DNA from: an uncultured Chlorobiaceae bacterium | GTDB taxonomy: Bacteria; Bacteroidota; Ignavibacteria; UBA10030; SZUA-254 | NCBI GenBank assembly: GCA_964520905.1 | Contig: CAZFQL010000001.1 | Span: 183,216 to 247,215 of the forward strand | DNA length: 64,000 bases | Reading direction: 5' to 3' | In this document: positions 4,659-45,615 of the stretch, piece after piece | Layout: each line of letters opens with the position of its first letter | Numbering within the stretch: the first letter of the stretch is position 1 | The notes under the pieces: model-generated | Databases searched by the model: none | Told to the model about the DNA's origin: nothing | What the model saw: only the letters and a program-made list of their open reading frames with translations | Position numbers and translations under genes: made by a program

Positions 4659-5924
4659 CTATCCAATCACCTCAAACCCAGTATATTTATGCAACACTTT
4701 TGGCACAATCACTTTTCCCTCCGGTGTCTGGTAATGCTCTATGAGTGCCGCAACAACTCTTGGCAGCGCCAGCGCTGAGCCGTTTAGTGTGTGAATAAAT
4801 TCCGGCTTTCCTTCTCCGCGCGGACGGAAACGGATATTCATTCGCCGCGCCTGAAACGATTCAAAGTTGCTAATTGACGAAACCTCGAGCCATCGCTGCT
4901 GCCCGATAGACCATACCTCAAGATCGTATTTCTTCGTCTGTGTAAATCCCATGTCGCCCGTGCACATGAGAAGCGTGTGATAATGCAGTCCCAATTTCTG
5001 GAGAAGCAGTTCGGCATCTTCGCGTAAACTCTCAAGTTCGTTGTACGAGACACCCGGGTGGACAAATTTTACTAATTCAACTTTATCGAACTGGTGCAGT
5101 CTGTTTAAACCGCGAACATCCTTACCATACGAACCGGCTTCGCGGCGAAAGCATGGCGTGTACGCACAATATTTTACAGGGAGCTGATCTTCCTTCAGAA
5201 TTTCGTCTCGGTGAATGTTTGTTACCGGAACTTCCGCTGTCGGAACGAGATACAATTCATCCTTAGTTGCAACGTACATCAAATCTTCTTTATCTGGAAG
5301 TTGTCCTGTGCCTGTTGCGCTGTTTGCATTCACCATAAGCGGCGGCTGAATTTCTTTGTATCCTCGCTTCGCGGCTTCATCAAGAAAGAAATTGATCAAC
5401 GCACGCTGTAACTGTGCACCCTGTCCTTTATATAAAGGAAAGCCCGCGCCTGAAATCTTTACACCACGCTCAAAGTCGATGATATCAAGCTTTTCAGCAA
5501 GTTCCCAGTGAGGTTTCGGTTTGAAATCAATTACAGGTGCTTCGCCCCACTTTGAAATTTCTTTGTTGTCGGTCGGCAGTTTTCCAACAGGAACAGATGG
5601 GTGTGGAATATTTGGAATAGTGAGCAGGAGTTGATTCAAAGATTTTTCAATCAGCGCGAGGGCATCATCAATAGATTTGATCTCTGTTTTCACTTCATCC
5701 ATTTGTGAGATCGCTGTTGCGGCATCTTTTTTTTCACGCTTCAGTTTACCGATTTCATCTGAAACGACGTTGCGTTTGTTTTTTAATACTTCAACCTTCT
5801 GAAGAAGTTCTCTTCGTTGTAAATCAAACTTCAGCGCTTCATCAATATTATCTTCGCCTCCTTTTTTTAGGATGCCTTCCTTAACTAAGCCTGGGTGTTC
5901 ACGAATGAATTTAATATCAAGCAT
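4659..5924 (-). CDS. serS: Seryl-tRNA synthetase
   Basis: 421 aa with an N-terminal coiled-coil and a class II catalytic core; full-length SerRS architecture. Confidence 0.95.
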   Translation of the reverse strand: MLDIKFIREHPGLVKEGILKKGGEDNIDEALKFDLQRRELLQKVEVLKNKRNVVSDEIGKLKREKKDAATAISQMDEVKTEIKSIDDALALIEKSLNQLLLTIPNIPHPSVPVGKLPTDNKEISKWGEAPVIDFKPKPHWELAEKLDIIDFERGVKISGAGFPLYKGQGAQLQRALINFFLDEAAKRGYKEIQPPLMVNANSATGTGQLPDKEDLMYVATKDELYLVPTAEVPVTNIHRDEILKEDQLPVKYCAYTPCFRREAGSYGKDVRGLNRLHQFDKVELVKFVHPGVSYNELESLREDAELLLQKLGLHYHTLLMCTGDMGFTQTKKYDLEVWSIGQQRWLEVSSISNFESFQARRMNIRFRPRGEGKPEFIHTLNGSALALPRVVAALIEHYQTPEGKVIVPKVLHKYTGFEVIG

Positions 5925-26004: not shown

Positions 26005-28395
26005 ATGAATCAGCCAGAATTTAATATTAAAGAAAACGAACCTCATCCGATAGAAAATATTCCTGACAAGCTTCCCGTGCTTGCGCTTCGCGATGTAGTT
26101 GTTTTTCCATATATGATCTATCCGGTTTTGCTCGGCAGAGAATCGTCGATTAAAGCCGCAACGATTGCAATCGAACGCGACAAATTAGTGTTCCTTACAG
26201 CACAGAAGAATCCGGCAATCGAAGAACCCACGATAGACGATATATATAGAGAAGGAACCGTCGCAAAGATAATACAAATCATGAAACTGCCGAACGGTTT
26301 GATGAAAATTCTTGTAAGTGGTGTCGTGCAGGGATTTATCAAAACATATATCGGTTACGATCCGTTCATCGAAGCGGAAATTGCGGTGAATCTGCCCAAA
26401 GAAGATATCAGTCCGGAGATTGAAGCTCTGATGCGGCACTCTTCACAATTATTCGCCGAGTATATTAATCTTAGCAGGAATGTTCCGGCAGAAGTATTAG
26501 CGGCGTACGAAGCGATCAAAGAGCCACACCGAAAACTTTATTTCATAGCTGCGAATATTAATCAGGTTGTCGCATCGAAACAGAAGATACTCCAATATCG
26601 TTTGTTGAAGGATCAGTATTTTGAAATTGCCAAACTGCTCACCTCGGAACTGGATGTGCTTAGGATTGAGAAAGACATCGACACGAAACTTCATGAAAGC
26701 ATACAGAAGTCGCAGAGGAAATTTCTTATTCAGGAACAAATCCGAATCATGCAGGACGAGCTTGGCTCTGAGGAAATAATTACGCCCGAGCTAATGAAGC
26801 TGAAACAACAGATCAAAGATGCAAAGATGCCCCGCGACGTCAACGAGAAAGCGATGGAAGAATTCAACAAGCTCAAAAAGACGATGCCGCAGTCGCCCGA
26901 GTTCGGGGTCAGCCGTAATTATCTCGATTGGATGGTTAGCGTTCCATGGTATAAACGAACAAAGGATGATCTGAATGTAAAACACGTTCAGAATATTCTG
27001 GACGAGGATCATTTCGGACTTGAGAAACCCAAAGAAAGAATACTCGAACACATCGCAGTACTAAATCTCGTTAAAGAAATGAAGGGGCAGATCCTCTGTT
27101 TTGTGGGACCGCCCGGAGTTGGTAAAACATCTCTTGGAAAATCGATTGCTCGTGCGCTCGGACGAAAATTTGTGCGTATCTCGCTCGGCGGAGTTCGCGA
27201 TGAAGCAGAAATACGCGGGCATCGCCGGACATACATTGGTTCGATGCCGGGGAAAATTATTCAGTCGATGAAACGCGCCGGCGTAATTAATCCGGTTATT
27301 CTGATGGATGAAGTTGATAAGATGAGTATGGATTTCCGGGGCGATCCGTCGTCCGCGCTTCTCGAAGTTCTTGATCCTGAACAGAACGTCACGTTTAACG
27401 ATCATTATCTGGATGTGGATTACGACCTATCACACGTCATGTTCATTACGACGGCGAATGTAAGGTACCAGATTCCATTGCCACTGCAGGATAGAATGGA
27501 GATCATCGAATTGCCGGGGTATTTGGAATATGATAAGCGTGAGATTGCAAAGCGGCATATCATACCCAAACAGTTGTCCGAGCACGGATTAAACAATGAG
27601 ATGGTAAAGCTTGAAGATTCCGCAATCATAAAAGTTATCAGGCAATATACGCGCGAAGCAGGCGTGAGAAATCTTGAACGTGAGATCGCGTCGGTTTGCC
27701 GAAAAGTGGCAAAAGATATTGTATTGCTTAAACAGAAAAACGGCAGGCGAACGCAACAGAAATCGATTAACGTTGACGAAAAGAAAATTGAAGGATACCT
27801 CGGTGTGCCGAAGTTTAGAAGCCGCTCAGCCAACATAGAAAGGAAAATCGGCTCAGTTATCGGTTTAGCTTGGACTAGCGTTGGCGGCGAGATTCTGAAT
27901 GTCGATGTAACGATCATGAACGGACATGAGAGGCTTACTCTTACCGGACAACTCGGCGATGTCATGAAAGAATCAGCACAGGCGGCGTTAAGTTATATTC
28001 GTTCGAATGCAAAACGGCTTGGTGTCCCCGCTAACTTTTACCAGAAAAAAGAAATTCATATACACTTGCCGGAAGGCGCAATTCCGAAAGACGGTCCATC
28101 GGCTGGCATTACCATGGCGATGGCTATCATCTCTGCAGCTTCCAACCGCCCCGCGCGTAACGATGTGGCGATGACGGGTGAAATAACGCTTCGCGGAAAT
28201 GTACTTGCCATTGGCGGATTAAACGAGAAGCTTTTGGCGGCGCAGCGCGGTGGAATTAAGACAGTCCTCATCCCCAAAGAAAATGAAAAAGATTTGACCG
28301 AAATTCAATCTAAAGTGAAAGAGGGACTAAAAATTGTCAGCATAGAACAGATTGCCGATGCATTGCCGTGGTTATTCGGCACAAAAAAGAAATAA
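26005..28395 (+). CDS. lon: ATP-dependent protease La (Lon)
   Basis: Lon N-terminal domain, Walker [10 protein letters not shown], and the catalytic [12 protein letters not shown] Ser with a downstream Lys. Confidence 0.95.
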
Positions 28396-28494: not shown

Positions 28495-30204
28495 ATGGCA
28501 TACCTCGTTACAGCCCGCAAATGGCGGCCCATGGTTTTCGAAGATATCGTCGGACAGTCGCACATCGCTACAACGCTTCGCAATGCGATCTCTACCAACC
28601 GGTTATCGCATTCCTATATCTTCAGCGGACCACGCGGCGTGGGGAAAACAACAACTGCGCGTATCCTTGCAAAAGCAATCAACTGTTTACATTCTAAAAA
28701 TATTAATCCGGATAACGAATGCGAGCTTTGCAGAGAAATAACCGAAGGTCGAAGCGTTAATGTTTTCGAGATAGATGGCGCTTCCAATCGCGGCGTAGAG
28801 GAAATAAGAAATCTAAGGGAAGCCGTTCGTTATGGACCGGCTAAGGGTAAATATAAAGTCTACATCATAGATGAAGTACACATGCTCACGAAAGAGGCGT
28901 TTAACGCGCTTCTGAAAACTCTCGAAGAGCCGCCATCTTATGTTGTGTTCATCTTCGCTACAACCGAAATCCACAAAGTACCTCTAACAATTCTTTCCAG
29001 ATGTCAGCGTTTCGACTTCAGGCGTATAACTATCGACGAGATTACCGAAAGACTCCGGTTCATTGCAACCGAAGACCGTATCAGCATCAGCGATGATGCG
29101 CTCTTTCTCATTGCAAGGAGAGGCGATGGATCCCTCCGGGATGCCCAGAGCATTTTCGATCAGGTCGTTTCATATTGTGGCGAGAAGATAGATGCGAAAC
29201 AGATAATCGCAATGCTCAATATTGTCGATGAAGAAATCTATTTCCGCGTAACAGATTTGATCAAAACAAAAGACGTCAAAGCCGGATTACTGCTTGTTCA
29301 GGAAGTTATTAACCGCGGTTACGATATAAGGGAATTTCTCAACGGACTGATGGAACACTTTCGTAACACGCTGGTATTGATTACGACGAAATCTACTACC
29401 CTGATTGAAACATCGGAATATTATCGTAAACTGTATAATGAGGAGGTAAAAAATTTTTCCGAAATGGATCTTCTCCGTCTGATTAAAATTGCAAGCGAAA
29501 CCGACGCGGCAATTCGCTGGAACCAGCAGCCCCGCTTGAAATTGGAAATAGGTTTGGTGCAGATGATAAAACTCGACAGCAGCATAGAGATCAGCCAGCT
29601 TATAGAACAACTCCGAGAGTTAAAAAAAAACATTCTTAACCCGGCTGATAAAAAAACAATACTCTCTACCGAGATTTCTCCCCCCCAAGCAACGGAAGCT
29701 CCAATCAAAGGCACTGTAAAAGCATCGCCACCAACATTGCATGCAGAGCAGGTTGTTACGATGACAATACCGCTTTCCGAACCGTCGCAGGTATATCAGC
29801 GAGTTTCATTATCTTCATCGCTTTCCAACGAGGAAGCGTTCAGCAAATGGCCAGCGCTCGTTAATGAAACCCTGAAGCAGCGCATCGCGTTGGGCACGAT
29901 GCTCAGTGAAACATCGCTTGTAGAGGTTCGTGACGGCAGGCTCCGGATCGGCTGTCCCGATGATTTTCACCGCGATACATTGACGATGAAACGTAATCAC
30001 CAATTTTTACAAGAGCTTGCAGAAAAAATTTACGGCGCAAAAGTCCAACTCGATGCAATCATATCTCATACCGTTACGCCTAAAAACCAAGCAAGCTACA
30101 CCTCTACTCAACATGAGACTTCCGCTGAGCAAACGAAAACAAACCAGCATCCAGTAGTACTTGCGTTAATAAGGGAATTTGGAGCGAAACCAATCAATCG
30201 TTGA
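28495..30204 (+). CDS. dnaX: DNA polymerase III subunits tau/gamma
   Basis: [23 protein letters not shown] and the Zn module CELC clamp-loader motifs. Confidence 0.95.
29622..29630 (+). other. A9 run inside dnaX; candidate transcriptional-slippage or -1 frameshift site for gamma production
   Basis: Codons TTA AAA AAA AAC, with K377 and K378 at about 66% of the gene length. The -1 frame reads AAA CAT TCT TAA, so a stop follows 3 codons after a shift. Confidence 0.5.
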
Positions 30205-30378: not shown

Positions 30379-31443
30379 ATGAAGGTATCAATTTTTGTCG
30401 ATAGAAAAATGCATCTTAAAACTCTTTGCATTCTTATCCTTTTCGTCGGTTCCTCTCCCGATATTATTGCGGCATCCAAAGCAAAATACGCTGGTGAATT
30501 CATTGCCATCGGTGTAGGCGGGCGGGCGCTTGGACTTGGCGGTGCGTATTCTGCCATAGCCAACGATATAACTGCCGGTTACTGGAATCCCGCAGGACTT
30601 TCTTCTCTTATGTATCCGCAAATTTCACTTATGCACGACGAGCGCTTCGCCGGATTGGTAAACTATGACTATGGTGCAATCGCTATTCCGGTAGGATCGG
30701 TTACAACATTTGCCGTTAGTGTCATCCGTCTGGGTGTGGATAATATACCTAACACGCAAAACGCAGGCATCGATGTGAACGGAAACCCGTTACCGCCGGA
30801 TCAATGGCAGAACTTCGATCATCTCGATCAGAGCCGCATCACTTATTTCAATAGTGCAGATTGGGCATTCTATCTGTCGTACGCGAAGAAAGTGAAAGAC
30901 AATTTTTCTTACGGCGCAAACCTAAAAGTAATACGCCGTGAAATGGGGGAAGCCTCGGCAACCGGGATCGGGTTTGATGTTGCGGTAAAATACTTGCCTT
31001 ACGAAAATATCGCGCTTGGCGTTAATCTTCAAGATGTTACTACAACGCTTATTGCCTGGAATAACGGCACGAATCAGCTTGTCACCCCGACGCTTAAGAT
31101 TGGATCTGCATATTTCATCGATGCATTGAGCGGTCGGTTTACGCCCGCTTTCGATGTCGATGTGAGATTCGAAAACAGAAAATATTCTTCCAACGCACAT
31201 CTTGGTTCTATGAGTTTCGATTTCCACGGCGGTCTTGAATTTGATTTTAAAAATCTTGTTGCGCTTCGTGCGGGCTACAGTGATATAGGATCGCTCAATT
31301 TCGGCGTCGGTATTCATCTTCCGAAATTCAACGTCGATTATTCTTTTGTCAAATTCAATAATGACGATCAATTGGGGAACACTCACCGTATCTCGTTGAC
31401 GTTTACGCTTCAAGCCGATCAATTCAAGCGGAGCATCGAGTAA
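30379..31443 (+). CDS. Outer-membrane beta-barrel of the FadL/TodX (PorV/PorQ-like) family; paralog of 13452-14786
   Basis: GGRALGLGGAYSAIANDITAGYWNPAGL after the signal peptide. Confidence 0.6.
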   Translation: MKVSIFVDRKMHLKTLCILILFVGSSPDIIAASKAKYAGEFIAIGVGGRALGLGGAYSAIANDITAGYWNPAGLSSLMYPQISLMHDERFAGLVNYDYGAIAIPVGSVTTFAVSVIRLGVDNIPNTQNAGIDVNGNPLPPDQWQNFDHLDQSRITYFNSADWAFYLSYAKKVKDNFSYGANLKVIRREMGEASATGIGFDVAVKYLPYENIALGVNLQDVTTTLIAWNNGTNQLVTPTLKIGSAYFIDALSGRFTPAFDVDVRFENRKYSSNAHLGSMSFDFHGGLEFDFKNLVALRAGYSDIGSLNFGVGIHLPKFNVDYSFVKFNNDDQLGNTHRISLTFTLQADQFKRSIE

Positions 31444-45033: not shown

Positions 45034-45615
45034 TTACGCCGATTGAAGCACATGGTCTATGATCTCATCGACTTTATCGACGGCTTGCTCAAGCGTTTCG
45101 TTAATGATAGTATAATCAAACTTTACTGCAAGCCCGAGCTCCATCTCAACCCGCTCCATTCGTTTTGCGAAGGTCTCGGGAGTTTCCGTTTTCCGATTCT
45201 TCAACCGCTCTGTAAGTAGTTCCATGCTTGGCGGTTTAATAAAAATTAGTAATGCAACTTGCGGATATTTTTTTTTAATAGAAAGCGCGCCGTTTACATC
45301 GACATCGAACAATATCGATGTATTTGCGCTGAATGCGCGCTCGACTTCACTTTTCAGTGAACCGTAATAATCGCCGTAAATTTGTTCCCATTCGGCGAGT
45401 TCGTCATGCCGGATCTTATACTCGAATTGTTCCTTGGTTAAAAAGAAATAATCCTTACCGTCAATTTCCGCAGATCGCTTCGTTCGGGTTGTTCCCGACA
45501 CGGAGAAAAAAAAATCGGGATGCCGCCGTAAAATCTCCTTAGCAATAGTGGTCTTTCCGCATCCGCTTGGTCCAGAAATAACAATCAATTTTGTCTTTGA
45601 CATAATATTATTCAA
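45034..45615 (-). CDS. gmk: Guanylate kinase
   Basis: GPSGCGKTT P-loop in a 193-aa protein. Confidence 0.95.
   Translation of the reverse strand: MNNIMSKTKLIVISGPSGCGKTTIAKEILRRHPDFFFSVSGTTRTKRSAEIDGKDYFFLTKEQFEYKIRHDELAEWEQIYGDYYGSLKSEVERAFSANTSILFDVDVNGALSIKKKYPQVALLIFIKPPSMELLTERLKNRKTETPETFAKRMERVEMELGLAVKFDYTIINETLEQAVDKVDEIIDHVLQSA

Follow-up and report, generated by a model that had tools for sequence, protein, structure and literature searches.

The dnaX locus and its A9 tract

The window analyzed here, i.e., the whole stretch of DNA under study, is 64 kb long and carries a dnaX gene, the features of which are listed in Table 1. The dnaX ORF scores 531.8 bits against the NCBIfam profile PRK05563 (cut-off 400) and 461 against TIGR02397 (cut-off 250). 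Pfam recognizes DNA_pol3_delta2, DNAX_ATPase_lid, and DNA_pol3_gamma3 (PF12169) in its product, the last of these corresponding to domain III and spanning aa 232–373. The product is collinear with residues 1–282 of Escherichia coli gamma/tau (PDB 1XXI, 1JR3, and 3GLH), and the crystallized E. coli gamma/tau core ends at residue 368–373. Tau is encoded in a single ORF, with the zero frame open across 569 codons, rather than in a two-ORF layout. The gene directly upstream of dnaX encodes Lon protease (26005–28395, + strand), and a gene for a 354-aa protein lies downstream (30379–31443, + strand). In several ortholog contigs, the downstream gene is of like size (342–354 aa), with weak UPF0164 or faint DUF5723 matches, and the gene order lon-dnaX-downstream gene recurs in ortholog contigs, e.g., L110 and L104.

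Table 1. Positions, within the window, of dnaX, the regions of its product, the poly-A tract, and the stop codons that follow in the shifted frames
Feature	Position	Strand	Basis or remark
dnaX, full-length tau in zero frame, 569 aa, 64.6 kDa	28495..30204	+	ORF, NCBIfam, Pfam
Last helix of N-terminal clamp-loader core (domains I–III), codons 366–380	29590..29634	+	AlphaFold2 model; PF12169 end at aa 373
A9 slippery tract (candidate), TTA AAA AAA AAC = L K K N	29622..29630	+	Sequence reading
TAA stop, −1 frame	29637..29639	+	Ends predicted 381-aa gamma-like product
Disordered, poorly conserved linker, aa 382–439, tau only	29638..29811	+	pLDDT <50; variable in protein alignment
TAA stop, +1 frame	29717..29719	+	Ends predicted 407/408-aa products
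C-terminal folded domain, aa 445–569, tau only, not in short product	29827..30201	+	Model, motif

In an AlphaFold2 model of the dnaX product, built on a 70-sequence alignment (mean pLDDT 80.5), the A9 tract is predicted to encode the last turn of the final core helix (aa 366–380), beyond which the chain would pass into the disordered linker. The C-terminal domain is modeled with helices and strands at aa 445–523 and 553–562 (pLDDT 83–94), and it contains a conserved GCPDDFH motif, through which orthologs were retrieved. The DnaX_C family (PF20964) gives a weak match in some dnaX orthologs.

From position 29617, the window reads GAG, followed by TTA AAA AAA AAC and then by ATT CTT AAC; positions 29620–29640 are TTAAAAAAAAACATTCTTAAC. 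The A9 tract falls in codons 376–379 of 569, at 66% of the gene, with codon 376 starting at position 29620, and it contains two in-frame heptamers, A_AAA_AAA and A_AAA_AAC. In the −1 frame, the tract is followed by CAT TCT TAA, such that a stop codon lies two codons past the run. A transcript with one extra A is predicted to encode a protein of 381 aa (43.9 kDa) ending in ELKKKHS, and a −1 shift of the ribosome would also yield 381 aa. The +1 frame, which would be entered with one A fewer or with two extra A's, continues for 29 codons to a TAA, giving predicted products of 407/408 aa. The predicted proteins of 381, 407, and 408 aa gave no match in an exact look-up, which is uninformative. The original prediction, made from the letters of the window and a list of its ORFs, had named the gene dnaX, placed the run at codons 376–379 and 66% of the gene length, and read the −1 frame as K-H-S-stop; the ORF, the profiles, and the sequence bear out all of these points. 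The run had also been placed at the end of domain III, in agreement with the end of the Pfam match at aa 373 and with the AlphaFold helix at 366–380.

An A9 run alone is not exceptional in this genome. The window is 42.5% GC, AAA makes up 71% of its Lys codons, and it contains two runs of A9 and one of T9; the within-window excess over chance is only weak. Since the tract is unexceptional by itself within the window, the case for its function rests on the comparison of orthologs. As judged from that comparison, what goes beyond chance is the position of the A9 run and its conservation in orthologs.

The other A9 run and the T9 run are both sense sequences within the guanylate kinase gene, gmk (45034–45615, − strand; runs at 45268–45276 and 45506–45514). 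The A9 context is ATT AAA AAA AAA TAT (SIKKKY), and the T9 context is GAT TTT TTT TTC (DFFF). A 95%-identical gmk ortholog has a broken A9 (AAA AGA AAA) and keeps the T9, and a 75%-identical relative (L114) has T8, T9, and A9 runs. Among 120 gmk homologs, the encoded motifs are not conserved, with FFF found in ~4 and KKK in ~20, in contrast to the situation in dnaX. Judging from these sequences, the lineage appears to tolerate 9-nt homopolymers in this housekeeping gene. Because efficient slippage on all 9-mers would be costly, tolerance of both gmk runs suggests either that slippage is of modest efficiency or that the polymerase is slippage-resistant. This caution bears on a ribosomal mechanism as well as on a transcriptional one.

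The dnaX linker holds two further homopolymers: an A7 run (29650–29656, in GAT AAA AAA ACA) and the only C7 run in the window (29680–29686). Both are <65 nt from the A9 tract, and the A7 run is also found in orthologs L081, L104, and L107. We considered these runs as extra slippery sites; both are broken in the 97%-identical ortholog L103, and they are probably not functional. Elsewhere in the window, there is a sense A8 run at 5727–5734, in the ORF at 4659–5924 (− strand). Among the orthologs, L098 has an A8 run at position 2103, inside the N-terminal part of its dnaX gene.

Conservation of the run among orthologs

The proteins closest to the window DnaX come from Ignavibacteria/Bacteroidota metagenome-assembled genomes. 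Among 120 DnaX homologs, the variable region after domain III opens with a conserved ELKK[KN], and KK is present at positions 377–378 in 86. Ortholog DNA was gathered from a metagenome scan with C-terminal-domain alignment, together with exact-protein look-ups, yielding 28 distinct sequences from the Ignavibacteria clade. These are 64–97% identical to the window protein over aa 1–380, and dnaX has the single-ORF layout in all of them. An A7–A10 run occurs at the same codons in 21 of the 28, the commonest length being A9. The nearest relatives are L103 (97% identity over aa 1–380) and L107, both with A9, and L104 and L081, both with A8.

Read from these sequences, roughly one in four clade orthologs, in several subclades, has lost the run. 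The seven orthologs that do not have it are L105, L106, L108, L082, L084, L100, and L110. At the run site, L105 reads DFRSS and L106 reads DLRKS, while L100 has KKK written AAG AAG AAA. In L110, only A6 is left, as A_AAA_AAC, with a −1 stop four codons on. L106 also has an in-frame G_GGA_AAA heptamer nine codons further on, with a −1 stop six codons later.

One check put forward with the original prediction was whether the A-run is conserved in orthologs even though AAG codons would be synonymous. It is: of the 20 orthologs with KK, 19 write both Lys as AAA, whereas 7.1 would be expected from the Lys codon usage of the individual genes (P = 2e-10, a naive value, since the calculation takes the orthologs to be independent and they are not). 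AAA AAA is held even in genes of 54–60% GC, where AAA accounts for only 15–50% of the gene's other Lys codons. The codon before KK, which encodes Leu or Ile, shows a similar bias, ending in A (i.e., the rare codons TTA, CTA, and ATA) in 16 of 20 orthologs, against 2.45 expected (P = 6e-14, naive in the same way, since these orthologs are not independent either). The GC-rich orthologs L099 and L101 have TTG/CTG before the run, but a third AAA restores the run to A10 and A9. Neighboring synonymous positions are clearly scrambled among the orthologs. On this codon-level comparison, the run and its length are conserved against synonymous drift.

The stop codons that follow the run differ between the two shifted frames. 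A −1 stop is found within seven codons in all 21 run-bearing orthologs, at a median distance of three codons, with differing stop codons between lineages; the combined p against within-gene background is 0.0017, with the 21 orthologs treated as independent. The distance to the +1 stop is like background (median 25 codons, maximum 154 codons, p = 0.69). Taking transcriptional and ribosomal versions together, the comparative data suggest that the A9 tract is probably a selected, gamma-producing recoding site. The original reading of the run as likely programmed slippage making gamma thus gains support from ortholog conservation, with the qualification that the run is absent from about a quarter of the clade.

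As a broad control, we used 80 dnaX loci sampled across bacteria, obtained with a full-length-alignment scan keyed on universal Walker-B/sensor peptides. A run of at least eight A's lies within ~50 codons after domain III in 12 of the 80 loci, and there are no such runs in the 85,419 nt of domain I–III coding sequence in the same sample. Stops are usually found within a few codons in both shifted frames. The run-bearing taxa include other Bacteroidota and Ignavibacteriota, Fibrobacterota, Leptospira, Desulfobacteraceae, and Smithella.

Two of the loci in the broad sample are unusual in their architecture. In a Fibrobacterales MAG (L050, JAOPTX010000017.1; A10 at position 2646), the layout is reversed, i.e., tau needs a shift: the zero frame stops five codons past the run, and the tau frame continues for 182 more codons. 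Other Fibrobacterota dnaX genes are single-ORF (L035, with A10G, and L052, with A11), meaning that the layout toggles within one phylum. In a Leptospira biflexa MAG (L065), there are two A9G tracts, at positions 2673 and 2768, which are 14 and 46 codons after domain III. Each is followed by shifted-frame stops, and together they may form a double slippage site.

Proposed transcriptional slippage and its alternatives

The explanation that we favor, with a probability of roughly one half, is that the A9 tract allows two clamp-loader subunits to be made from a single dnaX gene, mainly by transcriptional slippage. Templated transcripts would be translated into tau, of 569 aa. RNA polymerase would slip on the T9 template, such that a fraction of transcripts would gain one non-templated A. 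Ordinary translation of these extra-A transcripts would stop three codons later, producing a 381-aa gamma-like protein that consists of ATPase domains I–III only, i.e., one that has neither the linker nor the C-terminal domain. Some of the short product could also come from a −1 shift of the ribosome on this tract. We infer from sequence that slippage happens, what its efficiency might be, and that its mode is mainly transcriptional.

The argument for transcriptional slippage begins with the length of the run. Selection on run length extends beyond the heptamer, and the third AAA in L099 and L101 compensates for the loss of an A-ending codon; a heptamer-only site needs no extra A's. A second line of argument is that the stimulators associated with ribosomal frameshifting were sought and not found. 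No conserved downstream stem-loop was detected: in the window, the 60 nt downstream have a minimum free energy of −3.0 kcal/mol (z = 0.0), z-scores across the 21 orthologs range from −1.8 to +1.5, and no common structure was found. An Rfam scan of positions 29300–30000 at E ≤ 10 returned only noise, with no dnaX frameshift element. The optimum spacing for a Shine-Dalgarno (SD)-like stimulator is ~10 nt. By inspection of the window and the orthologs, there is no SD-like stimulator ~10 nt 5′ of the heptamer; the sole candidate is GAGAG (GAGGAG in orthologs), which is 5 nt upstream and is dictated by conserved Glu codons. Lastly, transcriptional slippage is favored by the lower shiftiness of A_AAA_AAC relative to A_AAA_AAG in E. 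coli. Counting against the transcriptional reading are the conservation of only the −1 stop, the presence of an in-frame heptamer in every run, the 9-mers in gmk, and the run-less subclades.

We also considered an upstream hairpin in the nascent RNA (AACUC-CGA-GAGUU), the 5-bp stem of which abuts the A-run, and rejected it as a conserved stimulator. Among the 21 orthologs, pairing holds in 80% of cells, and in 12 orthologs the central pair does not form. Neither measure is above shuffled controls (47/500 shuffles for percentage paired, and 28/500 for covariation score). The hairpin is a by-product of the codons for Leu-(Asp/Glu)-Glu-Leu.

The alternative that survives best is that the same gamma-like 381-aa protein arises chiefly from programmed −1 frameshifting of the ribosome on A_AAA_AAC, which we consider somewhat unlikely as the principal route. 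tRNA-Lys and tRNA-Asn would slip back one base, and translation would stop two codons later, giving a product that ends in ELKKNHS; in orthologs, the shift would take place on A_AAA_AAG or A_AAA_AAT. No tRNA genes lie within the 64-kb window. Consistent with a ribosomal event, the window and every run-bearing ortholog contain an in-frame X_XXY_YYZ heptamer; in about half of these orthologs, it is the exact E. coli A_AAA_AAG in phase. In L110, all that is left is the heptamer (A6C) with its nearby −1 stop. Conservation limited to the −1 frame stop points the same way, and Antonov et al. read a stop pattern in one direction as an indication of ribosomal frameshifting (PMC3711429). The tolerance of A9 and T9 runs in gmk is easier to square with a context-dependent ribosomal event. 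There is also a proven IS case of frameshifting on A_AAA_AAC, and this case has no established stimulator (PMC4066793). Against these points, the window and its orthologs have no conserved stem-loop, Rfam dnaX element, or convincingly placed SD-like stimulator, and in E. coli, A_AAA_AAC shifts far less readily than A_AAA_AAG (PMC5009743). Moreover, a model based on the heptamer accounts neither for the ending of codon 376 in A nor for the way in which L099 and L101 make up the run length.

It is unlikely, and slightly more so, that there is no programmed recoding at all. According to this explanation, the run reflects a conserved Lys-Lys(-Lys) helix end combined with A-rich codon bias or some other preference at the nucleic-acid level; slippage would be low-level noise, and the nearby −1 stop would merely limit the damage from errors. 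Indeed, KK is kept at the protein level (86/120 homologs), L100 keeps KKK with AAG AAG AAA, 71% of Lys codons in the window are AAA, and long runs also occur in gmk. Roughly a quarter of the clade orthologs have no such run, and for many bacteria, production of gamma is not known. However, codon bias fails to account for AAA AAA and the rare A-ending Leu/Ile codons at 54–60% GC, and it explains neither the compensation in run length nor the universal close −1 stop. A9–A11 runs reappear at this point of the gene in Fibrobacterota, Leptospira, Desulfobacteraceae, and other Bacteroidota, with none in domains I–III. The gmk runs are unconserved across 120 homologs.

It is very improbable that the run is an error of assembly or sequencing, or that it is a phase-variation tract at the DNA level, turning tau on and off by slipped-strand mispairing. 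Homopolymers are error-prone in sequencing, and in other taxa a difference of one nucleotide (A9 versus A10) sets the single-ORF layout of dnaX apart from the two-ORF layout. However, independent assemblies from different samples (L103, L107, L081, L104, and cluster members) share the run and the unbroken 569-aa frame, there are no truncated variants of the window protein on record, and dnaX is essential, making on/off switching implausible.

Returning to slippage at the A9 tract, we can also envisage a variant that is stimulator-less and direction-biased, in which ~9 A's are maintained by rare codons and compensation, and only a −1 stop is provided. This variant is unlikely. If it were true, RNA polymerase would add essentially one A, or transcriptional and ribosomal slippage would act together. 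It would also follow that much of the FCB group inherited the poly-A junction from a common ancestor, and that lineages toggle between the A9 single-ORF and A10 two-ORF layouts, or lose the tract.

Significance and comparison with known systems

Poly-A recoding of dnaX as such is already known in other bacteria, and the general picture is unchanged by the tract described here. If the proposed slippage is real, it would extend the arrangement in which tau and gamma are two products of one gene to Ignavibacteria. The orthologs would then provide a comparative set in which selection on homopolymer length, rather than on the heptamer, is visible, and this would help to separate transcriptional from ribosomal slippage in silico. 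There would also be a consequence for annotation, since the gamma product is now unannotated in these genomes. The run-less subclades would provide a natural way of testing whether gamma can be dispensed with or is produced by another route.

In Thermus thermophilus, the dnaX A9 run has been shown experimentally to slip transcriptionally, making gamma (Larsen et al. 2000, as summarized in PMC1088944 and PMC5009743). Like the window dnaX, T. thermophilus dnaX encodes tau in a single ORF and has a sense A9 run after the clamp-loader core. A Thermus-type site has ~9 sense A's after domains I–III, as is found in the window dnaX. In Thermus, the short product comes from out-of-frame transcripts that are terminated at a nearby stop, a feature that the window gene shares as a prediction, and neither gene has an apparent requirement for an E. 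coli-type stem-loop. Thermus has nearby stops in both shifted frames; in the window, the −1 stop is two codons away and the +1 stop 29 codons away, and only the −1 stop is close and conserved. The window A9 also differs in lying 66% of the way along the gene, exactly where domain III ends.

In E. coli dnaX, gamma is made by a −1 ribosomal frameshift at A_AAA_AAG, together with an SD-like sequence and a stem-loop (PMC5009743). The window gene resembles E. coli dnaX in the position of the site at about two-thirds of the gene, in the −1 direction, and in the termination within a few codons. The E. coli heptamer A_AAA_AAG is identical and in phase in about half of the orthologs. By contrast, the window has A_AAA_AAC, there is no conserved stem-loop and no Rfam match, and the tract has been extended to nine A's, apparently by selection. 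The predicted products also differ in length relative to the core: E. coli gamma has 431 aa, continuing ~55–60 residues past the crystallized core, whereas the predicted window gamma would, according to the structural model, end at the core itself.

Two-ORF dnaX genes with A7–A10 runs have been described for Chlorobi, Flavobacterium/Flavobacteria, Cytophaga, Capnocytophaga, and Coraliomargarita (Antonov et al. 2013, PMC3711429). These genes belong to related phyla of the FCB group, have poly-A at the tau/gamma junction, and are predicted to undergo transcriptional realignment, as is the window gene. They differ in the frame that is read by default: in the two-ORF genes, the zero frame stops just past the run, such that gamma is the standard product and tau needs a shift, whereas tau is the standard product in the window.

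Caulobacter crescentus also derives tau and a shorter gamma from one gene, through ClpXP processing of DnaX (PMC5009743). This is post-translational proteolysis with no slippery sequence, unlike the arrangement in the window. By analogy, ClpXP-type processing may be relevant to the run-less Ignavibacteria subclades. Among all of these systems, the window dnaX is closest in layout to that of Thermus, and phylogenetically closest to the poly-A dnaX genes of Chlorobi/Bacteroidetes.
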